64,000 nt of DNA, taken from assembly GCA_046538755.1 (NCBI GenBank), contig JBKHIH010000008.1, forward strand, positions 15,115 through 79,114. The letters are read 5' to 3'. The notes under the pieces were generated by a model. That model was given only the letters and a program-made list of their open reading frames with translations. It made no database searches and had not been told where the DNA came from. The translations under genes were made by a program, and so were the position numbers. This document shows positions 20,525 to 30,705 of this stretch, one piece after another (within the stretch, counting starts at the first letter, position 1; each line of letters opens with the position of its first letter). The DNA is from Thiohalospira sp. GTDB lineage: Bacteria > Bacteroidota > Bacteroidia > Bacteroidales > UBA12077.

Positions 20525-21523
20525 TTAAATTAATTTATAGATTACCACATCAATGATTAATCCTAACAAAAACAGCATTCCAAATGACCGATTAAAGACA
20601 AACGCTCTGTGAACCAAATACAAAGGCCATCCACGGCCTAATTCACCTTCAGGTGCTGTTTCAGGACGTTTTTTTGCCATCACTTTTGTTTCCCTAATGA
20701 ATTTAGGAATAGATAATAAAACCAATAAAATTGCAGGGCCTAACTGAGCTGTAACCACTAAATAAATAACTAAAGCATATTGCAAAACCCACAATCCGAT
20801 TACTGAATATCGTGATGCTTTTTCACCAATAATTACAGGTAAAGTTTTAATACCTTTGGCTTTATCTTCTTCCAGTTTATCGGTATGCTTACCCAGTAAA
20901 ACGGTTGTCGGTCCAAAAGCATATACAAGACTTACCAAAGCAACCCAGTTACTCCATTCACCACCCGAAACAACAAAATAAGTTCCGCCAATCATTAGTG
21001 GTCCCCAAACTAAGACAACAGAAATTTCTCCTAATCCAAAATACTTCAAAGGCCAGGTATAAAAAAGTAAAAAAAACAAACCGGGAATCAATACCCATAG
21101 TGTTTGTAATCCTACATGGTAAGTTATCATTAATCCTGCAAACAGTGCCAGTAATCCGGTTACCACAATAAAAGCAATAAATTTACCCTTCGTCATAAAG
21201 CCGTTTTCCAATGGATGTGGCCCATATTGTGCCCGGTAGTAATTATCTTTATCCACTCCTTTTTTATAGTCTACATAATCGTTTAGCAGATTATTAGTGG
21301 CATGTGCCAACACCAAACCAAAAAAGCTTAACACAAATATTGGCCATGAAAAATTTCCATCGCGATAAGCTAATAAACCGCCAATACCGGCAGCAATAGC
21401 TGTCATAATAAATACAGCGGCACGACTGGCAATAAGCCAGCGAGAAATTAAATCGTAACTATTCCACTCTTCTTTTGTAACTCTTGGAATTACCCGTAAA
21501 GCATTTATCCATATTTTAAACAT
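20525..21523 (-). CDS. UbiA/MenA-family prenyltransferase (1,4-dihydroxy-2-naphthoate prenyltransferase-like)
   Basis: Motifs NLLNDYVDYKKGVD, PLKYFGLGE and D..EDKAKGIKTL; multiple TM helices. Confidence 0.85.
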   Translation of the reverse strand: MFKIWINALRVIPRVTKEEWNSYDLISRWLIASRAAVFIMTAIAAGIGGLLAYRDGNFSWPIFVLSFFGLVLAHATNNLLNDYVDYKKGVDKDNYYRAQYGPHPLENGFMTKGKFIAFIVVTGLLALFAGLMITYHVGLQTLWVLIPGLFFLLFYTWPLKYFGLGEISVVLVWGPLMIGGTYFVVSGGEWSNWVALVSLVYAFGPTTVLLGKHTDKLEEDKAKGIKTLPVIIGEKASRYSVIGLWVLQYALVIYLVVTAQLGPAILLVLLSIPKFIRETKVMAKKRPETAPEGELGRGWPLYLVHRAFVFNRSFGMLFLLGLIIDVVIYKLI

Positions 21524-21702
21524 ATCTGATTATTTTATATTAAACATTATTTTATCTCTTGATTTGATAAACAATGAAAACCAGAAAATGTTAAAAGAAT
21601 TTAGGATTTGTTTATCTTTAAATAAGGCTACTTTTTAATGAATTGATTTTCAATGTTTTTTTCGTATAAAATTCATAAAAAATAGAATTTCTTATAAAAA
21701 TT

Positions 21703-21733
21703 TTTGATATTAAAAATCTTGTACGTATAATTG
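21703..21733 (+). promoter_or_regulatory. Putative Bacteroidota primary-sigma promoter of the his leader
   Basis: TTTG (21703-21706), a 19-nt spacer, then TATAATTG (21726-21733), one mismatch from the TAnnTTTG consensus. Confidence 0.55.
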
Positions 21734-21754
21734 CACAATCAAAACAGACAAAAA

Positions 21755-21832
21755 ATGAGTTTACAATTTGTACATACCGTTCATCATCACCATCATCATG
21801 CTGGTAATTGCAACGTATGCAAATTTTTGTAG
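21755..21832 (+). CDS. His attenuator leader peptide 1 (MSLQFVHTVHHHHHHAGNCNVCKFL)
   Basis: Hand translation gives 25 aa with 7 His (6 consecutive) and an A-rich start context (AAAAATG). It is followed by a terminator and lies upstream of hisG. Confidence 0.9.
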   Translation: MSLQFVHTVHHHHHHAGNCNVCKFL

Positions 21833-21855
21833 ATTCCTAAAAATATTTAACACAT

Positions 21856-21887
21856 AAAAGGGCTTGCAAATTTTGCAGGCCTTTTTT
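21856..21887 (+). terminator. His attenuator terminator 1
   Basis: AAAAG-GGCTTGCAA-ATT-TTGCAGGCC-TTTTTT. Confidence 0.85.
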
Positions 21888-21909
21888 CATTTAAACCCTA
21901 TTAAACATA

Positions 21910-21969
21910 TTGATTTTTTGGCTCCCTTTAGTCCCGAAAACTTTCGGGAGGGGCAAAACAAAAAATCAA
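21910..21969. repeat. Nested inverted repeat with a REP-like core between the two His attenuators
   Basis: Outer TTGATTTTTTG (21910-21920) pairs with CAAAAAATCAA (21959-21969). The inner core is TCCCGAAA-AC-TTTCGGGA (21932-21949). Confidence 0.65.
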
Positions 21970-21983
21970 ATAAAAGAAACATC

Positions 21984-22052
21984 ATGAACCAAAAACATCA
22001 TCATATCCATCATCATTCGAGTGAAAAACACACCCGGCGGAAGATACTATGA
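21984..22052 (+). CDS. His attenuator leader peptide 2 (MNQKHHHIHHHSSEKHTRRKIL)
   Basis: 22 aa with 7 His (HHHIHHH plus one more), followed by a second terminator just upstream of hisG. Confidence 0.88.
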   Translation: MNQKHHHIHHHSSEKHTRRKIL

Positions 22053-22081
22053 CTATATTTTAAGTTCTCAATAAGAAATTT

Positions 22082-22112
22082 AAAGGTCTGCAGTTCTCTG
22101 CAGGCCTTTTTT
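22082..22112 (+). terminator. His attenuator terminator 2
   Basis: AAAGGTCTGCAG-TTCT-CTGCAGGCCTTTTTT, ending 23 nt before the hisG ATG. Confidence 0.88.
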
Positions 22113-22135
22113 ATTTAACATAAATAATAAAGAAA

Positions 22136-22993
22136 ATGGAAAAATTAAAAATTGCAGTACAAAAATCGGGACGACTTAGTGAGAAGTCCATTCAATTATT
22201 GCAGGAATGCAACATTAAATTAACCAACGGAAACAGGAAACTCATATCGGTTTCGTCAAATTTCCCAATTGAAATTCTTTATTTACGCGACGATGATATC
22301 CCCCAATACATTTATGATGGAGTTGCAGATATTGGAATTGTGGGAGAAAACGAGATGCTCGAAAAAAACTACCCGCTAAACGTTTATCAGCGGCTTGGTT
22401 TTGCCAAATGCCGATTGTCGCTGGCCATTCCAAAATCAGAAAATTACGAATCGCTCACTTACTTCCAGAACAAAAAAATTGCCACCTCCTACCCTTCAAT
22501 TCTCCAAAGCTTTCTTGAAAAAAATAATATCGATGCCGAGATTCACCAAATAAGTGGTTCTGTTGAAATTTCTCCCAGTATCGGTTTAGCTGATGCTATT
22601 TTCGATATAGTAAGCTCTGGAAGTACTTTAATCAGTAATGGTTTAAAAGAAGTTGAGCAGGTAATTGAATCTGAAGCTGTGATGATTGGTAAAGAAAAGT
22701 TGAAACCTGAAAAACAAAACATCCTGGATCAGCTTATTTTCAGAATAAAAGCGGTTCAAAAGGCTAAGTCGAATAAATACATTCTGTTGAATGCTCCAAA
22801 TGAAAAGCTGAAAGAGATTATCGAAATTATTCCCGGAATGAAAAGTCCGACCATTATGCCATTGGTTGATGATAACTGGTGCTCATTGCACTCTGTTGTG
22901 AACGAAGAAAAGTTCTGGGAAGTAATCGACCGTTTGAAGTCCGCTGGAGCGCAGGGCATTTTAGTTATACCAATTGAAAAAATGATTCTATAA
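22136..22993 (+). CDS. hisG: ATP phosphoribosyltransferase (long form)
   Basis: Motifs IAVQKSGRL, LRDDDIP, IATSYP, DIVSSGSTL and terminal ILVIPIEKM. Confidence 0.97.
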   Translation: MEKLKIAVQKSGRLSEKSIQLLQECNIKLTNGNRKLISVSSNFPIEILYLRDDDIPQYIYDGVADIGIVGENEMLEKNYPLNVYQRLGFAKCRLSLAIPKSENYESLTYFQNKKIATSYPSILQSFLEKNNIDAEIHQISGSVEISPSIGLADAIFDIVSSGSTLISNGLKEVEQVIESEAVMIGKEKLKPEKQNILDQLIFRIKAVQKAKSNKYILLNAPNEKLKEIIEIIPGMKSPTIMPLVDDNWCSLHSVVNEEKFWEVIDRLKSAGAQGILVIPIEKMIL

Positions 22994-23003
22994 ACATTAA
23001 AAA

Positions 23004-24296
23004 ATGAAGATTTTAAAATATCCTAACGAAATTGAATTATCAGAAGCCTTAAAACGGCCTGTTTTTGAAATGGACAAACTGGAGAAATCAGTAAAGCAAA
23101 TTATAAAACAGGTCAGGCTCAAAGGTGATAATGCCTTATTGGAGCTCACCAGAAAATTTGATCAGGCGATTATTAATAAACTAGCCATTTCACAAGAATC
23201 AATCGGCCAGGCTGAAAAATTACTTACTCCTGATTTAAAAAATGCCATTCGCATTGCGTCCGAAAATATTGCTAAATTCCATAACGCACAAATACCACAA
23301 GAAATTAAAGTGGAAACCACAAAAGGAGTTATATGCTGGCAGAAGCCTGTATCTATTGAGAAAGTAGGTTTGTACATTCCGGGTGGTTCGGCTCCGCTGA
23401 TTTCTACTGTTTTAATGTTAGCGATCCCGGCACAACTGGCAGGTTGTAAGCAAATTGTACTGTGCACACCACCAGATAAAGACGGTAAAATTAATCCTGC
23501 TATCCTGTATGCAGCAAAAATTTCAGGTGTAACAGAAATCTATACTTGTGGCGGAGCACAAGCTATTGCAGCTATGGCTTATGGTACCGAATCCATTCCA
23601 AAAGTAGATAAGATTTTTGGACCGGGAAACCAGTTTGTAACTATGGCAAAACAAATCGTTTCTTCGCAAGGAATAGCCATTGATATGCCTGCAGGCCCAT
23701 CGGAAGTTATGATTCTGGCAGATGAAACCGCTAATCCCGAATTTATTGCTGCCGATTTACTTTCACAGGCTGAACACGGAGCTGACAGCCAGGTTATTCT
23801 TGTTACCGACAGTAATAAAATAGCTAATCAGACTTTGATTTGTTTAAACAATCAACTGGAAGCACTTCCCAGAAAGGATATTGCAATGCAATCGTTAAAA
23901 TCGGCAGCCATTTTGATTGTAAAAAATCAACAGGAAATGATTGAAATAAGCAACCGATATGCACCGGAACATCTTATTATTTCAACAATTAAAACGGATG
24001 AACTGGCACAACAGATTACACAGGCCGGGTCTGTTTTTCTGGAAAATTACACTCCAGAAAGCCTTGGAGATTATGCTTCAGGAACCAATCACACCCTACC
24101 AACTAACGGGTTTGCGCGGAGTTACAGTGGCCTGAATATGGATGCATTTTTCAAAAAAATAACATTTCAGAAAGCCACGAAAGAAGGACTGGAGATCATT
24201 GGCCCGTTCGTAGAGCAAATTGCCGAAGCAGAAGAGTTGCAGGCACATAAAAATGCAGTTAGTATTCGACTAAAAACATTAGAAAATGAAAACTAA
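23004..24296 (+). CDS. hisD: Histidinol dehydrogenase
   Basis: Motifs GLYIPGGSAPL, IDMPAGPSE, LSQAEH, YAPEHL and GDYASGTNHTLPT. Confidence 0.97.
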   Translation: MKILKYPNEIELSEALKRPVFEMDKLEKSVKQIIKQVRLKGDNALLELTRKFDQAIINKLAISQESIGQAEKLLTPDLKNAIRIASENIAKFHNAQIPQEIKVETTKGVICWQKPVSIEKVGLYIPGGSAPLISTVLMLAIPAQLAGCKQIVLCTPPDKDGKINPAILYAAKISGVTEIYTCGGAQAIAAMAYGTESIPKVDKIFGPGNQFVTMAKQIVSSQGIAIDMPAGPSEVMILADETANPEFIAADLLSQAEHGADSQVILVTDSNKIANQTLICLNNQLEALPRKDIAMQSLKSAAILIVKNQQEMIEISNRYAPEHLIISTIKTDELAQQITQAGSVFLENYTPESLGDYASGTNHTLPTNGFARSYSGLNMDAFFKKITFQKATKEGLEIIGPFVEQIAEAEELQAHKNAVSIRLKTLENEN

Positions 24297-25368
24297 AATT
24301 GATTTTGATATCAACAGGCTGGTTAGGCCTAATATTCTAAAATTAAGGCCTTACCATTCGGCTCGTGAGCAGATAAGCGATCAAGATGCTATTTTGCTCG
24401 ATGCCAACGAAAATCCATTTCCGGTTGGATATAACAGGTATCCGGATCCATTGCAACGAGACCTAAAAAAGAAAATCGCAAAACAAAAAAGTATTCCCGT
24501 TGAAAAAATCTTTTTAGGCAATGGCAGCGACGAAATCATTGATTTGTTGATACGTGCTTTCTGTATTCCGGGTAAAGATTCGATACTAATTAATGTGCCT
24601 ACATACGGAATGTACGAATTTTGCGCCAACATGAACGATGTAGAAGTTATTAAAGTTAAGCTTGATAAAGAATTTCAGATCAATTTATCGCAGGTTTTGA
24701 AAAACAGCCGGCAGGCTAAAATAATATTCATTTGCTCGCCAAACAATCCTTCCGGAAACCTGATGAAAAAGGAAACCATTTACGAATTACTTAACCTGTT
24801 CAATGGTTTAATTGTAATAGACGAAGCTTATATTGATTTTTCTGATGATGCCGGGTTTATGTCAGAAATTAAGAATTACCCAAACCTGATTGTATTGCAA
24901 ACCTTTTCAAAAGCCAGGGCAATGGCAGGGATCCGATTAGGAATGGCTTTTATGAATGCTAAAATCGTAAATATTTTAAATAAAATTAAATATCCTTACA
25001 ACATTAGCCTTCTAAATCAAAATGCAGCGTTAAAAGCCCTAGATGATGATTCTGTGAATTCGGGAATAAAAGCAATTCTGGAACAAAGAGAATGGTTAAT
25101 CTCTGAACTACAAAAAATCTCTATCGTCGAAAAGATTTGGCCTTCGAATGCAAATTTCCTGTTGGTTCAATTTCAAAATCATCAGGTAGTTTTTGAATTT
25201 CTAAAAAAAGAAGGAATTATTTTGCGCGACAGGTCTAACGAACCCAACTGCGAAGGCTGTTTACGCATTACGGTTGGAAAATCTCTTGAAAATCTAATGC
25301 TGATAACCGTTTTAAAGCATTTGGATAAAAATATTTCTGAATATAAAATTTTTGAATTACAGAAATAG
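24286..25368 (+). CDS. hisC: Histidinol-phosphate aminotransferase
   Basis: Motifs LDANENP, NRYPDP, GNGSDE, CSPNNPSG, DEAY and TFSKA. Confidence 0.96.
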   Translation: MKTKIDFDINRLVRPNILKLRPYHSAREQISDQDAILLDANENPFPVGYNRYPDPLQRDLKKKIAKQKSIPVEKIFLGNGSDEIIDLLIRAFCIPGKDSILINVPTYGMYEFCANMNDVEVIKVKLDKEFQINLSQVLKNSRQAKIIFICSPNNPSGNLMKKETIYELLNLFNGLIVIDEAYIDFSDDAGFMSEIKNYPNLIVLQTFSKARAMAGIRLGMAFMNAKIVNILNKIKYPYNISLLNQNAALKALDDDSVNSGIKAILEQREWLISELQKISIVEKIWPSNANFLLVQFQNHQVVFEFLKKEGIILRDRSNEPNCEGCLRITVGKSLENLMLITVLKHLDKNISEYKIFELQK

Positions 25369-25393
25369 TATTAATAAAAAACCATTAATGAAG

Positions 25394-25472
25394 CTTCGTG
25401 TTCTTTATGAATTTAGTAGTAAATTATTTTAACCACTAAGGACACTAAGGATATCACAAAGTAACACAAAGA
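25394..25472. repeat. Degenerate CAC(T/A)AAG short-repeat/inverted-repeat element in the hisC-hisB spacer
   Basis: AACCACTAAGGACACTAAGGATATCACAAAGTAACACAAAG, preceded by the loosely complementary CTTCGTGTTCTTTATGAATTTAGTAGTAAA. Confidence 0.5.
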
Positions 25473-25488
25473 CTTAATAACGAAAAAT

Positions 25489-26595
25489 ATGAAAAAAATA
25501 CTGTTTTTAGATCGTGACGGAACGATTATCAAAGAACCCGAAGATGAGCAAATAGATAGCCTGGAAAAACTGGAATTTATTCCGGGAGTATTCCGGGTTT
25601 TGTATCAGCTCATCAATCAATTTGATTACGAATTGGTTATGGTTTCAAACCAGGATGGTTTGGGTACCGGCTCCTATCCTACCGAATCGTTCAATTTGGT
25701 TCAGGAAAAACTAATAACCACCTTAAAAGGCGAAGGAATTGAATTTTCAGAAATACTTATTGATAATTCTTTTCCTTTGGATAAAAGCCCGAACCGAAAA
25801 CCCAATACGGGTATGGTAAAGAAATATCTAAACCCGGAATTGGATTATGAAAAATCTTTTGTTATTGGCGATCGCTTAACAGATTTGCAATTAGCACGTA
25901 ACATGAATCTTAAAGGAATTTTACTGGGTGAAAATAGTGATATAAACATTACCAATAATAAAACACTATTTAACTGTAAAACCTGGGATGAAATATTAGA
26001 TTTGATCAAAACAAATTCCAGGTCAGCGAATGTTGTGAGAAACACCAAAGAGACTCAAATTGAAATTCAGTTATCCTTAGACGGAGATGGAAAAACCGAT
26101 ATTTTTACCGGGCTGCGATTCTTTGACCACATGTTGGAGCAACTGGGCAAACACTCCGGCATGAATCTTTCAGTAAAAGTTAATGGCGATCTGGATATCG
26201 ACGAACACCACACCATTGAAGATTCTGCTATTGCCCTGGGAGAAGCATTCCTAAAAGCATTGGGAAACAAAAAAGGCATTGAACGTTACGGATTCACTTT
26301 GCCTATGGATGATTGCTTAGCGCAGGTGGCTATAGATTTTGGTGGCAGGCCATGGTTAGTATGGGATGCTGAATTTAAAAGAGAAAAAATTGGCGAAATG
26401 CCAACGGAAATGTTTTATCACTTTTTTAAATCATTTGCTGATGCTTCAAAATGCAACCTGAATATTAAAGTGGAAGGAAATAACGAACATCATAAAATAG
26501 AAAGCATTTTTAAAGCACTGGGAAGGGCAATAAAGATGGCTGTAAAGCAAGAAGAATATGCGTATACTACCCCATCAACAAAGGGCATGCTTTAA
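25489..26595 (+). CDS. hisB: Bifunctional histidinol-phosphatase / imidazoleglycerol-phosphate dehydratase
   Basis: HAD domain motifs DRDGT, NQDGLGT, RKP and GDR; IGPD motifs [14 protein letters not shown] and NEHHKIE. Confidence 0.97.
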
Positions 26596-26651
26596 TAAGA
26601 GATTCATTTCGAGAGTCTTCCTAAAATTTTAAGCATAACACCCAAAAGAAT

Positions 26652-26727
26652 AGTCACTGCGAAAGAGCCTTGAAAGGGCGATTGAAGCAGTCTTTTTAAA
26701 GATTACATCGCTTCACTCGTAATGACT
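26652..26727. repeat. REP-like GTCA(C/T)TGCGA...TCG(C/T)AATGAC stem-loop element in the hisB-hisH spacer
   Basis: AGTCACTGCGA...GAAGCAGTCT...AGATTACATCGCTTCACTCGTAATGACT, with imperfect terminal and internal inverted repeats. Confidence 0.65.
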
Positions 26728-26770
26728 TATGTTATTATTGGGCAATGACAACAATAAAAACTAACTAATT

Positions 26771-27352
26771 ATGAAAATAGCAATCATAAAATACAATGCA
26801 GGAAATATACAGAGTGTCGCTTTTGCGTTGGAACGGCTGGGAATAAAACCGGCTATTACCGATGACCCTGAAATCATTCAGAAAGCCGACAAAGTAATAT
26901 TTCCCGGAGTTGGCGAAGCTTCGTCAACCATGAACTTCTTGCGCCAATCGAAACTCGATGTGCTTATTCCGGAATTGAAAAAACCCGTACTTGGAATCTG
27001 CCTTGGAATGCAATTGATGTGTAGTTTCTCAACAGAAGGAAACACTCCCTGCCTTGGGATTTTTGACGAAAAGGTGGAGAAATTCCCACCGGGCAATAAA
27101 GTTCCGCATGTTGGCTGGAACAGTATTAACAATCTGAAAAGCCCGTTATTTAAAGGTTTACCCGAAAACAGCTATGTATACTTTGTACACAGCTATTTCG
27201 TGAATCAGAGTTTATACGGCATTGCTGAATGCAATTATAATCAGACATTCAGTGCTGCTTTACAAAAAGATAACTTTTTCGCTACACAGTTTCACCCTGA
27301 GCGTAGTGGAAAAACAGGTGAAATTATTTTAAAAAATTTTATAGCGTTATGA
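26771..27352 (+). CDS. hisH: Imidazole glycerol phosphate synthase, glutaminase subunit
   Basis: Motifs FPGVG, GICLGMQ, VPHVGWN, YFVHSY and QFHPE. Confidence 0.97.
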   Translation: MKIAIIKYNAGNIQSVAFALERLGIKPAITDDPEIIQKADKVIFPGVGEASSTMNFLRQSKLDVLIPELKKPVLGICLGMQLMCSFSTEGNTPCLGIFDEKVEKFPPGNKVPHVGWNSINNLKSPLFKGLPENSYVYFVHSYFVNQSLYGIAECNYNQTFSAALQKDNFFATQFHPERSGKTGEIILKNFIAL

Positions 27353-28071
27353 TAGAAATAATACCAGCAATCGATTTAATAGATGGCCAGTGTGTTAGGC
27401 TGTCGCAGGGAAAATACAACCAAAAAACCGTGTATTCAAGTCAACCTGCACTTGTGGCAAAAGCATTCGAAAATCAGGGATATAAAAGATTACACCTGGT
27501 TGATCTGGATGGAGCTAAATCGTGCCAACCCGAAAACTTAAATGTTTTAAAAGAAATTTCTGCAACAACAAATTTAATTGTTGACTATAGTGGTGGAATA
27601 CGCACCAAAGAGCAGGTAAAAGATGTATTAAATGCAGGTGCTAGTTATGTTGGAATAGGAAGCTTAGCGATAAAAGAGCCGGAAACCTTTAAAAATATGA
27701 TTAAGAAATTTGGTTCTCAAATCTTCATTGTTGCATCGGATGTTTTAAACAACAAAATTTATATCAACGGATGGTTAAAAGAAACCAATATCAGAATTTT
27801 TGATCTGATTTCTGCTTATTCAGATTTGGGCATTACCAAATTCATGTGTACAGATATATCTCGCGATGGAATGCTTTCGGGCGTAAATATTGATTTATAT
27901 AAATCGCTAAAAGAATCTTTTCCGAAAAACTACATTATTGCCAGCGGCGGCGTAAGTTCTAAAAAAGACATTTACGATTTGGAAAAAGCCGGAATCGATG
28001 CCGTAATTGTGGGAAAAGCATTTTATGAAGATATTATTCCGATAGAAAATTTAACCCTAAAACAATGTTAG
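27349..28071 (+). CDS. hisA: ProFAR isomerase
   Basis: Motifs [29 protein letters not shown] and IASGGV. Confidence 0.96.
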
Positions 28072-28820
28072 CAAAAAGAATAATTCCATGTCTGGATATT
28101 AAAGACGGGCAAACCGTAAAAGGTATTGAGTTTGAAAACCTGAAATCAGTTGGTGACCCGGTAGAACTGGGCAAATATTACAGCGATAACGGAGCTGACG
28201 AGCTGGTATTTCTGGATATTACCGCATCACACGAGAAGCGTAAAACACTAAGTAAGCTGGTTACCCGAATAGCTAAGGAAATAAATATTCCGTTTACTGT
28301 AGGTGGCGGTATTTCTAGTATCGACGATGCAGATGTGATTTTGTCTGCCGGTGCCGATAAAATTTCGGTTAATTCAGCTGCCATTAATAATCCTCAGCTT
28401 ATTAGCCAAATTGCTAATAAATTTGGAAGTCAATTTATTGTACTTGCCATTGATGCAAAACTGGAAAATGAAAAGTGGTTTGTTTACAAAAACGGTGGAA
28501 GAATAAAAACAGAGCTTGAGCTTTTTGATTGGGCTAAAAAAGCCGAATCGCTGGGTTGTGGTGAAATTTTATTTACATCAATGAACCACGACGGAACCAA
28601 AAATGGTTTTGCATTAGAACCTTTAAAATGGCTTTCCGGAAATTTAAACATCCCGGTAATTGCTTCGGGTGGTGCCGGCTCTGTAAAAGATTTTGAAGTT
28701 GTTTTTAAATACGCTAACGTAGAAGCTGCATTGGCGGCCAGTGTTTTCCATTATAAGGAGATTGAAATTCCCTGCTTAAAAAGAAAATTATCTTTAAATA
28801 ATATACCAATAAGAAATTAA
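28065..28820 (+). CDS. hisF: Imidazole glycerol phosphate synthase, cyclase subunit
   Basis: Motifs [30 protein letters not shown] and ASGGAG. Confidence 0.97.
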
Positions 28821-28831
28821 TTAACTCATAC

Positions 28832-28863
28832 TTCGACATCCCGATAGCTATCGGGATGTCGAA
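28832..28863. repeat. Perfect 32-bp palindrome with a TCCCGATAGCTATCGGGA REP-like core
   Basis: TTCGACATCCCGATAG|CTATCGGGATGTCGAA is its own reverse complement. Confidence 0.85.
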
Positions 28864-28885
28864 ATGTGCAAACATATAATATTCT

Positions 28886-29473
28886 ATGAATTTAAATTTT
28901 AACAAATTAAACGGGCTTGTACCAGCCATCATTCAGAATTATAATACAAAAGAAGTATTAATGCTCGGGTTTATGAACCGGGAAGCCTACGAAAAAACTA
29001 TAGAAAAAAAACTGGTTACCTTTTACAGCCGTACTCGTAACGAATTGTGGACCAAAGGCGAAACCAGCGGCAATTATCTAAACGTAAAAGAAATTATAAC
29101 AGATTGTGATAATGATACTTTACTGATTTTAGCTGAACCTACAGGACCGGTATGCCATACTGGAAGTAAAACCTGCTTTGCAAATCAAAATGTAAGCTTT
29201 GATTTAAATTATTTGCAGCAGGTAATCGATAAGCGTAAAATGGAAATGCCCGAAGGCTCTTATACAACCAAATTATTTACCAAAGGGATTAACAAAATTG
29301 CACAAAAAGTAGGCGAAGAAGCTGTGGAATTAATCATCGAAGCAAAAGATAACAATGACGAATTATTCCTGAACGAAGCCGCAGATTTGGTTTATCATCT
29401 GTTGGTTTTATTATCAGCGAAAGGTTTTAAACTAAATGATGTAATACAAATTTTAGAAAAAAGACACAAATAA
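28886..29473 (+). CDS. hisI: Bifunctional phosphoribosyl-AMP cyclohydrolase / phosphoribosyl-ATP pyrophosphatase (HisIE)
   Basis: Motifs LWTKGETSGN, DCDND, GPVCHTG, SYT and KVGEEAVE, EAADL. Confidence 0.97.
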   Translation: MNLNFNKLNGLVPAIIQNYNTKEVLMLGFMNREAYEKTIEKKLVTFYSRTRNELWTKGETSGNYLNVKEIITDCDNDTLLILAEPTGPVCHTGSKTCFANQNVSFDLNYLQQVIDKRKMEMPEGSYTTKLFTKGINKIAQKVGEEAVELIIEAKDNNDELFLNEAADLVYHLLVLLSAKGFKLNDVIQILEKRHK

Positions 29474-29534: not shown

Positions 29535-29588
29535 ATGAGCAAACAATTTTCTGCATACTATTATTTCTACTTTTATTTTTTACAATAA
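29535..29588 (+). CDS. Tyr/Phe attenuator leader peptide 1 (MSKQFSAYYYFYFYFLQ)
   Basis: 17 aa with 8 consecutive Tyr/Phe codons. GGCAGGA (29590-29596) is complementary to the terminator 5' arm TCCTGCC (29635-29641). Confidence 0.9.
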   Translation: MSKQFSAYYYFYFYFLQ

Positions 29589-29629
29589 AGGCAGGATAAT
29601 TATGTAGATTATTAAAAAAAATATTACAG

Positions 29630-29659
29630 AAAGGTCCTGCCGCAAGCAGGGCCTTTTTT
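29630..29659 (+). terminator. Tyr/Phe attenuator terminator 1
   Basis: AAAGGTCCTGC-CGCAA-GCAGGGCCTTTTTT. Confidence 0.88.
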
Positions 29660-29677
29660 ATTTAAATTGATTCAGTA

Positions 29678-29767
29678 ATGAAATTACAAAGCATCGAGAC
29701 TAACGCATATTTTTTCTTTTACTATTATTATTTCCATAATAGGCCGGGACAGCTATGTTTAAACTGA
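29678..29767 (+). CDS. Tyr/Phe attenuator leader peptide 2 (MKLQSIETNAYFFFYYYYFHNRPGQLCLN)
   Basis: 29 aa with 9 consecutive Tyr/Phe codons. CCGGGAC (29744-29750) is complementary to the terminator arm GTCCCGG (29795-29801). Confidence 0.9.
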   Translation: MKLQSIETNAYFFFYYYYFHNRPGQLCLN

Positions 29768-29790
29768 AAGTATAAAAACAATTAATAACC

Positions 29791-29823
29791 AAGCGTCCCG
29801 GGAAATTTCGAGGCGCTTTTTTT
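29791..29823 (+). terminator. Tyr/Phe attenuator terminator 2
   Basis: AAGCGTCCCGGG-AAAT-TTCGAGGCGCTTTTTTT (one C-A mismatch plus G-U pairs), ending 12 nt before the pheA ATG. Confidence 0.8.
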
Positions 29824-29835
29824 ATTTAATACGCT

Positions 29836-30705
29836 ATGAAAATTAGTATACAAGGAATAAAAGGCTCTTTTCACGAAGAAGCAGCAAGAAATTATTTTAT
29901 ACATGACATAACAATAGTCCCCAATATTACTTTCAACGATGTAATAACCTCAGTTATTAGCGGAGAATCTGATCTCGGAATTGTAGCCATTGAGAATACG
30001 CTTTCTGGAACCATCCATTCCAACCTCAATTTAATCAGACAATCCGGATTAAAAATAACAGGCGAAGAATACCTCTCCATTCATCAAAATCTCATTGCCC
30101 TTCCCGGAACCAAAATTGAGGATATTAAACAGGTTTTTTCCCATTACATGGCTATAAATCAATGCAGGAGTTTTTTTCAAAAATACCCTCAAATAAAACT
30201 TGTTGAGTCAGAAGATACTGCATTAAGTATTCGAACAATCGCTGATAAAAAGCTCAAAAACATTGCTGCCATTGGAAGTAAATTGGCTGCAGGCTACTAT
30301 AGAATGGATATTATTTCCCCAAATATAGAAACACACCAAAAAAATTATACCCGATTCTTAATTCTGGATAAAAAAATCAAAAAACAAAATTTCAACAAAG
30401 CTTCGTTAGCGTTTACCCTGCCCCACCGTAAAGGTAGTTTGGCTTATATTCTCAATATCATTGCTTTTAACGAAGTTAATCTGACAAAAATTGAATCTGT
30501 ACCCATTATTGGTGAACCATGGCATTATTTATTCTATATAGATGTTCAACTGAATGAAACGGAGCTTTACTTTCAAATGCTCCATACAATTAAAACCATA
30601 ACCGATAATCTGATAATTTTAGGCCAGTATGATTCAGGAATTCAATCGTTTAACCAAATACACAATTTACATTATGAAACCAGCAAACAGAATTGCAAAT
30701 CTTAA
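29836..30705 (+). CDS. pheA: Prephenate dehydratase with ACT domain
   Basis: Motifs QGIKGSFHE, AIENTLSG, SHYMAINQC, NYTRF and NLTKIES. Confidence 0.93.
   Translation: MKISIQGIKGSFHEEAARNYFIHDITIVPNITFNDVITSVISGESDLGIVAIENTLSGTIHSNLNLIRQSGLKITGEEYLSIHQNLIALPGTKIEDIKQVFSHYMAINQCRSFFQKYPQIKLVESEDTALSIRTIADKKLKNIAAIGSKLAAGYYRMDIISPNIETHQKNYTRFLILDKKIKKQNFNKASLAFTLPHRKGSLAYILNIIAFNEVNLTKIESVPIIGEPWHYLFYIDVQLNETELYFQMLHTIKTITDNLIILGQYDSGIQSFNQIHNLHYETSKQNCKS

Follow-up and report, generated by a model that had tools for sequence, protein, structure and literature searches.

Leader-peptide attenuation is always drawn in textbooks as one leader and one terminator. The his operon described here raises the question whether two such switches can stand one behind the other on the same message. 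It lies in a window of 64,000 nucleotides, the whole stretch of DNA that was analysed, from a member of an uncultured Bacteroidales family. According to the sequence from 21400 to 22400 and the listing of open reading frames, hisG is preceded by two short His-rich ORFs, each with its own intrinsic terminator downstream. The feature is real and conserved, and a function is very likely. A preliminary description had read it as two leader-peptide attenuators in series. This reading is supported by the conservation, by purifying selection, by three pairings per module and by a single conserved promoter motif.

Organization of the his leader region

All parts named in the preliminary description, a promoter-like box, leader 1, terminator 1, leader 2, terminator 2 and hisG, were recovered in place by reading the sequence together with the ORF list. 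The features are as follows.

21703..21733, + strand: promoter, -33 TTTG at 21703-21706, -7 box TATAATTG at 21726-21733
21755..21832, + strand: leader ORF 1, ATG at 21755, 25 codons, stop UAG at 21830-21832, encoding MSLQFVHTVHHHHHHAGNCNVCKFL
21757..21836, + strand: anti-antiterminator 1, start-codon region 21757-21765 paired with 21828-21836 in the MFE fold
21826..21870, + strand: antiterminator 1, 21826-21838 (holding the stop codon of leader 1) paired with 21859-21870, the 5' arm of terminator 1, in a constrained fold
21856..21887, + strand: intrinsic terminator 1, stem 21856-21869/21873-21886 of 14 pairs, 3-nt loop, T-run 21882-21887 (six T)
21906..21968, + strand: palindromic repeat element in the inter-module spacer, a hairpin in the fold, with dispersed copies elsewhere
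21984..22052, + strand: leader ORF 2, ATG at 21984, 22 codons, stop UGA at 22050-22052, encoding MNQKHHHIHHHSSEKHTRRKIL
21986..22067, + strand: anti-antiterminator 2, His-codon region paired with 22040-22067 in the fold
22042..22097, + strand: antiterminator 2, 22042-22069 (holding the stop codon of leader 2) paired with 22075-22097, the 5' arm and loop of terminator 2, in a constrained fold
22082..22112, + strand: intrinsic terminator 2, stem 22082-22093/22098-22109 of 12 pairs, 4-nt loop, T-run 22107-22112 (six T)
22136..29473, + strand: his operon hisG, hisD, hisC, hisB, hisH, hisA, hisF, hisIE, from the ORFs, with Pfam matches for all eight

Leader 1 has an unbroken run of six His codons at 21782-21799, preceded by a single one at 21773-21775, which makes 7 His in 25 codons. 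Leader 2 contains the run HHHIHHH at 21996-22016 and reaches 7 His in 22 codons. The two peptides are unlike each other outside the His run. The hairpin energies are -17.0 kcal/mol for terminator 1 and -19.0 kcal/mol for terminator 2, and the latter was also picked up by a simple scan. Both terminators share the end TGCAGGCCTTTTTT. The start of hisG is placed at 22136 (Pfam HisG). The -33/-7 consensus of Bacteroidota promoters, which we take to be TTTG / TAnnTTTG, fits the promoter in front of leader 1. The same promoter can be read as sigma-70-like, TTGATA-16-TATAAT at 21704-21731, with 11 of 12 positions matching in a simple scan. From these motifs, transcription likely starts near 21740.

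The arrangement is not a product of chance. The whole 3.73-Mb genome was scanned on both strands for short ORFs with an ATG start and at least 4 His in 7 residues, followed by a nearby hairpin and a T-run. Exactly two His matches were obtained, and these were leaders 1 and 2. The scan as a whole, for short ORFs rich in one amino acid, was noisy, with 274 raw candidates, mostly Leu/ILV-type noise within genes. It returned six tandem pairs, three of them real (his, phe and trp) and three noise (C89, C92 and C124, rejected). Eleven other candidates of the scan were dropped for their positions inside or after ordinary genes. Both halves of the his leader fold better than shuffled sequences, with z values of -4.3 and -6.2, and none of 200 shuffles folded equally well.

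Alternative structures and covariation

In folds with the ribosome footprint masked, both modules adopt the three classical states of an attenuator. Segment 21826-21838 pairs alternatively with the start of leader 1 (21757-21765) or with 21859-21870. Segment 22042-22069 has two alternative partners, 22075-22097 and the His-codon region. [quoted passage not shown] Thus both modules contain the elements of a leader-peptide attenuator: an ORF with His codons, a terminator before hisG and an antiterminator that excludes it. The antiterminators reach about -7 to -10 kcal/mol, compared with -17 to -19 kcal/mol for the terminators, and the earlier remark that the antiterminators are weak was a fair one.

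Pairing was counted in 19 sequences of the genus. Antiterminator 1 is paired in 98.1% of cells compared with 28-64% when slid, antiterminator 2 in 78.9% compared with 30-57%, and anti-antiterminator 2 in 82% compared with 30-48%, the structures being derived from the window's own sequence, which favours them in this slide control. Antiterminator 1 lacks two-sided covariation because its segment is nearly invariant. Antiterminator 2 has two-sided changes in 7 pairs, compared with 2.0 in shuffles, and none of 500 shuffles reaches any of five measures, in a control that takes no account of relatedness among the sequences. Terminator 2 is paired in 99.1% of cells and has two compensatory pairs, values reached by at most 1 of 500 such shuffles. 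Terminator 1 is paired in 95.1% of cells, with no two-sided changes among the 19 sequences. A family-wide alignment was needed for it because the helices of module 1 barely vary within the genus. With the sister genera added (26 sequences), 91.4% of its cells are paired, four pairs are changed on both sides (14 cells), and the covariation score is reached by none of 500 shuffles. In anti-antiterminator 1, the outer helix shows pairing in 99.4% of cells, all changes being one-sided and pair-preserving in the 19 sequences, and the inner pairs are less conserved. Taken as a whole, neither anti-antiterminator 1 nor anti-antiterminator 2 exceeds the shuffle control. Covariation supports both terminators and antiterminator 2.

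The modules fall outside the known family models. In the Rfam model His_leader (RF00514), module 1 obtains 27.1 bits and module 2 obtains 21.6 bits, compared with a gathering score of 49. Sub-threshold matches to STnc370, His_leader, Phe_leader and Thr_leader are due mostly to the terminator hairpins and denote resemblance, not membership.

Conservation and selection within the genus

A hisG gene is present in 21 of 37 genomes of the genus. A DNA search with the leader region, followed by a script, found adjoining modules with both His ORFs intact in all 19 contiguous hisG leaders, the window's genome included. One genome (G010) was left out, its hisG being a fragment at a contig end. In another (G021), an IS element with a DDE transposase gene is inserted between the modules; module 1 lies 1.8 kb upstream of module 2, and module 2 and hisG are intact. 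Terminator 2 was detected in 19 of 19 loci. Terminator 1 was detected in 18 of 19 under a rule of at least five T, and the remaining locus (G020) has the hairpin followed by TTTT.

The leader peptides vary in detail. The His run of leader 1 is eroded in two genomes, to HHQHY in G003 and to HHLHH in G004. The run of leader 2 is interrupted by an Ile codon in 17 of 19 sequences (HHHIHHH or close variants), the exceptions being G046 and G051. The start codon of leader 2 is shifted in several genomes (MNQK... versus MYTTQK...) and always stays in frame with the His run. A shifting start that keeps its frame is the pattern that selection for translation would be expected to leave.

Over the 171 pairs of the 19 genomes, module 1 has a mean identity of 0.82 and module 2 one of 0.79. 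For the same pairs, mean identity is 0.76 for hisG overall and 0.39 for its fourfold-degenerate sites, which are saturated. In 171 of 171 pairs, each module has a higher identity than the fourfold sites. Upstream of the promoter, no alignment is obtained between genomes, and the spacer between the modules is variable. From this comparison with fourfold sites, upstream DNA and spacer, it follows that both modules are under strong constraint. They travel with hisG, not with the upstream neighbour.

Promoter motif and inter-module spacer

The number of promoters bears on whether both modules share a transcript. TTTG, a spacer of about 19 nt and TATAATTG or a near variant occur upstream of leader 1 in 18 of 19 loci of the genus, the segment of the 19th being truncated. 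Variants of the -7 box at the same place are TA[TA][AT]ATTG or TATACTTG. The same scan of the genus loci, which used the -33/-7 consensus and would miss atypical promoters, found no comparable conserved motif between the modules. A candidate in this interval, AAATTTTG, was rejected; it is the loop of terminator 1, without TA and without a -33 box.

Between the T-run of terminator 1 and the ATG of leader 2, 14 of 19 loci have 31-52 nt, and the full range is 31 to 102 nt. The five longer spacers, the window's included, hold the inserted palindromic element; the other 14 of 19 do without it. The region of this element matches many dispersed sites in genomes of the genus, with one more site in the window's genome (G000). 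The palindromic element at 21906..21968 does not belong to the switch. The single promoter motif and the short spacers favour one transcript for both modules, as far as motifs can indicate. Some promoter activity near module 2 is possible.

Doubled leaders upstream of phe and trp genes

The doubled design is neither his-specific nor a one-off, for the trp and phe genes of the same genome carry it too. A second doubled leader in the window is located upstream of the prephenate dehydratase gene (pheA) at 29836.

29536 to 29589: phe leader 1, encoding MSKQFSAYYYFYFYFLQ, terminator near 29631-29660
29679 to 29767: phe leader 2, encoding MKLQSIETNAYFFFYYYYFHNRPGQLCLN, terminator near 29791-29824

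The anthranilate synthase gene (trpE; Pfam) on contig C95 is preceded by MIEKNINWWWFIYNSKKS and a terminator, then by MNLRINTKFWWWHMLIRNKL and a terminator. Both trp leaders carry WWW, and both phe leaders carry F/Y runs (tandem Phe/Tyr). The phe pair is kept in 11 of 11 genus loci. The trp leader pair is kept in 8 of 8 full genus loci, with both terminators detected in 7 of them. All three leader-controlled operons found, his, trp and phe, are doubled.

Alignment of the two trp modules extends over their full length (z 8.2, 0 of 500 shuffles) and indicates a tandem duplication. The phe modules align partly (z 3.7). The his modules align only at the 3' arm of the terminator and at the His codons, and a duplication origin of the his pair is not supported by so limited an alignment. 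The domains LeuA_dimer and ILVD_EDD_N (leuA, ilvD) were not found in the window's genome. The sole homoserine dehydrogenase gene of this genome follows a metX-like gene.

Distribution beyond the genus

The family comprises four genera, and two sister genera, g18 and g20, were sampled. Tandem his leaders occur in 2 of 2 loci of g18 and in 5 of 8 loci of g20, the other three being single-leader; three further hisG matches in g20 stand outside this count. Tandem trp leaders occur in 2 of 2 loci of g18 and in 7 of 10 evaluable loci of g20. Tandem phe leaders occur in 4 of 6 loci of g20, the phe locus of g18 being at a contig end and outside the count. Leader 2 of both sister genera has an uninterrupted run of 4 to 7 His. 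Together with the genome in which the IS element splits the leader (G021), the three single-leader loci among the eight of g20 suggest that one attenuator can suffice.

A search of hisG upstream regions across Bacteroidota for two leaders, proposed in the preliminary description, gave two modules in 4 of 80 loci. Two of these belong to the window's genus and two to Carboxylicivirga. One module was found in 46 loci and none was detected in 30, many of which have a His leader with no terminator that passes the detection rule. Where other Bacteroidota have a single His leader, its position is similar to that of module 2. In other families of the order, 10 loci have at most one His leader each by ORF pattern, five with one and five with none. 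Of 151 genomes of the order, 23 matched the Rfam model Bacteroid-trp, none of them more than once. Outside the family, leaders are as a rule single.

Carboxylicivirga has a doubled his leader, in which about 20 nt separate terminator 1 from leader 2, and single trp and phe leaders. The doubled his leader thus arose at least twice, independently in Carboxylicivirga. Carboxylicivirga linearis and C. sediminis are recorded strains, not MAGs.

Proposed mechanism and alternative explanations

The locus probably contains two ribosome-mediated attenuators for the same signal, in series on one transcript. The proposal builds on what sequence and comparison show, namely the conserved parts with their alternative pairings, a lone promoter motif, and trp and phe leaders doubled in the same way; it presumes that both ORFs are translated. 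Transcription from the promoter near 21703-21733 would yield a leader RNA of about 400 nt with two complete, independent attenuators, both of which would sense the charging of tRNA-His. A ribosome that reaches the leader stop codon would cover the 5' arm of the antiterminator, so that the terminator can form and stop transcription. If instead the ribosome stalled on the His codons, this arm would be free to pair with the terminator's 5' arm and would let RNA polymerase read on. With no ribosome, the leader start is predicted to pair with the antiterminator arm, which would lead to termination. Each gate would require a ribosome to load separately; its stalling would mean read-through, and its completion of the leader would mean termination. 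As the polymerase would have to pass both gates before hisG, expression would be the product of two read-through probabilities. For a gate with leak b and open level M, the range would become (M/b) squared, with a steeper response at low induction. Plentiful His would then mean lower leak, and His running short a steeper response. This multiplicative effect is inferred from the anatomy and from reports on tandem T-boxes and riboswitches (PMC9413887, PMC2864571). The doubled switch probably gives tighter control than the single textbook version.

Module 2 might instead regulate hisG alone, from its own promoter, with module 1 as a separate short unit that stops at terminator 1 and encodes either a small RNA or a small peptide. 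The IS element between the modules of G021, with hisG and module 2 intact, would agree with this, as would the single leaders at three of eight g20 loci. There is also a precedent in Sinorhizobium, whose trpL attenuator reportedly gives small RNAs and leader peptides with trans roles (PMC7298713, PMC7968998). However, the conserved antiterminator of module 1 (98% of cells paired) would be purposeless unless read-through matters, and no conserved promoter motif is found between the modules, where spacers go down to 31-41 nt, and to about 20 nt in Carboxylicivirga. Module 1 also keeps its place next to module 2 and hisG despite a changing upstream neighbourhood, and the same doubling occurs on trp and phe. 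A separate unit is therefore unlikely, although a trans role for the short terminated RNAs remains as an addition compatible with serial attenuation.

The two modules would form a logic gate if they sensed different signals, leader 2 perhaps also reading Ile, Ser, Arg or Lys codons. Such a division is known from mgtCBR (PMC3641672), and the Ile in the His run of leader 2 in 17 of 19 genus sequences and the dissimilar peptides outside the run could be taken in this sense. But His codons dominate both leaders, leader 2 of g18 and g20 has 4 to 7 uninterrupted His, and the trp pair both carry WWW as the phe pair both carry F/Y runs; different signals are very improbable. Still harder to maintain is that module 1 is a neutral or decaying duplicate without regulatory effect. 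The eroded His runs of leader 1 in G003 and G004 and the g20 species with one leader only would be its traces, yet module 1 is 82% identical where synonymous sites are 39% identical, and three genera retain its ORF, terminator and antiterminator. Two same-signal attenuators on one transcript account best for the pair.

Implications

The conserved state here is two full copies in series, on three operons and across a bacterial family. The whole family may double its attenuators as a rule, with two same-signal serial checkpoints each for his, trp and phe, kept family-wide, and with the his doubling occurring again in Carboxylicivirga. This generalization is tentative and falls a little short of being probable. 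If true, ribosome sensing alone would have been made repressor-like in tightness and switch-like in response, by a natural route taken more than once. A trait of the lineage that makes one attenuator too leaky may also lie behind it. Candidates for such a trait would be a loose coupling of transcription and translation without Shine-Dalgarno initiation, or weak termination.

The leaders offer a natural system for asking whether serial ribosome-dependent gates multiply read-through and sharpen the dose response. A further question is whether doubled gates replace the repressor tier that E. coli adds to trp. In C. linearis and C. sediminis, a tandem his leader beside single trp and phe leaders forms a built-in bench comparison. 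For annotation, tools and Rfam models that expect a single leader call part of such regions or miss them.

Comparison with known systems

The enterobacterial hisL and trpL leaders share with each module the short ORF with regulatory codons, the terminator, the mutually exclusive antiterminator and anti-antiterminator, and the stop codon in the antiterminator arm. They differ in having one unit instead of two in series and in the promoter, which is of the Bacteroidota type here, and no sequence homology is recognisable. Attenuators, those of Bacteroidetes included, were reportedly surveyed by Vitreschak et al. in 2004. Single leader-peptide attenuators of Bacteroidota are represented by Bacteroid-trp (Rfam RF01692) and by leaders of Flavobacterium psychrophilum (PMC9723704). 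These belong to the same phylum, the same mechanism class and the same operons, and differ by their single copy. Module 2 of the trp leader from the window's genome scores 29.7 bits in RF01692, compared with 49.

In the full-text literature, mostly without subscription journals and supplements, no description of tandem leader-peptide attenuators for the same amino acid was found, and an earlier mention is possible; the only tandem leader-ORF attenuators found there were those of mgtCBR. The preliminary description had known of no characterised serial ribosome-dependent attenuators, a statement overtaken by this Salmonella leader, whose tandem attenuators with two leader ORFs are called a singular example by their authors (Lee and Groisman, 2012; PMC3641672). 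Both systems place two short ORFs in one leader RNA, each controlling transcription elongation independently, the ORFs being translated in mgtCBR and predicted here. The mgtCBR ORFs sense ATP and proline, intrinsic terminators are lacking and the effects are additive (PMC3641672). Leaders of the ermA type reportedly also have two leader peptides. Unlike mgtCBR with its different signals per ORF, both units of the his leader carry runs for the same amino acid, His, and each has a canonical terminator.

Placement in series is said to strengthen repression in the synthetic pT181 work. These tandem pT181 antisense attenuators likewise stand in series in one leader; they are engineered, controlled by antisense RNA and not ribosome-dependent (bioRxiv 10.1101/003335).

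A parallel in layout is given by tandem T-boxes and riboswitches, where two complete sensor-plus-terminator units for the same signal lie in one 5' leader. In the genome studied here, two such units lie upstream of one gene for his, phe and trp. Duplication is regarded as the origin of such tandem T-boxes and riboswitches, and a sharper response as their effect. For double T-boxes, a cooperative action that makes the response sharper has been suggested (PMC9413887), and a tandem arrangement has been linked to more digital regulation (PMC2864571). In T-boxes and riboswitches the RNA itself binds the tRNA or the ligand, whereas here the translating ribosome would be the sensor, and each gate would therefore need its own initiation event.

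Further doubled attenuators in the genome

Serial leader modules also precede aromatic amino-acid genes in the genome carrying the window. The features concerned, with those at the junction of the two his modules, are as follows.

Features of the doubled attenuators and of the his inter-module spacer
Window 21906-21968: palindromic element of about 60 nt in the spacer separating the two his modules
Window 29536-29824: doubled Phe/Tyr attenuator preceding the gene for prephenate dehydratase (29836-30705)
Window 29536-29589 and 29679-29767: its Phe/Tyr-rich leader ORFs, each followed by a terminator
Contig C95, 12279-12536 (locus L137/L159): doubled Trp attenuator upstream of trpE in the same genome
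Locus L184, 563-1909 (contig C77 of the relative G021): DDE_Tnp_1 transposase gene inserted at the junction of his modules 1 and 2

Both trpE leaders contain WWW, and two strong terminators are present. The two trp modules can be aligned from end to end, pointing to tandem duplication as the origin of the pair. The doubled Phe/Tyr leader is found in all 11 genus loci and in four of six sister-genus loci. No match to LeuA_dimer or ILVD_EDD_N was detected in this genome (99.75% complete), suggesting branched-chain amino-acid auxotrophy. Of 37 genus genomes, 21 yielded hisG and 16 did not; several of the latter are more than 95% complete.

Variation within the his modules

Variants of the palindromic element occupy the inter-module spacer in 5/19 genus genomes with contiguous hisG leaders. 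Copies are scattered through many genomes of the genus, with one further copy in the window's own genome (contig C96, 13662-13696), and the element resembles a small repeat of mobile or REP-like type. In one relative, G021, insertion of the transposase gene has placed the his modules 1.8 kb apart.

Of the 19 genus sequences, 17 have a single Ile codon within the His run of leader 2 (window 21996-22016; alignment A3), yielding HHHIHHH or near variants; the exceptions are G046 and G051. The run is uninterrupted in the sister genera.

Comparison with other Bacteroidota

Among the surveyed Bacteroidota hisG loci, eight from Cytophagales (L088, L096, L101, L102, L104, L124, L128 and L136), e.g. from Algoriphagus, Belliella and Pontibacter, encode leader peptides sharing the C-terminus ...HHFHHSS or ...HHIHHSS. 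No terminator satisfying the rule of a hairpin followed by a run of at least five T was found in these eight leaders, so a different expression platform, possibly translational, may apply. The cultured strains of Carboxylicivirga linearis and C. sediminis (L083, L115) carry a doubled His attenuator within 300 nt 5' of hisG. At trpE and pheA these strains have single leaders. Their doubled His attenuator is independent of that in the window's family.
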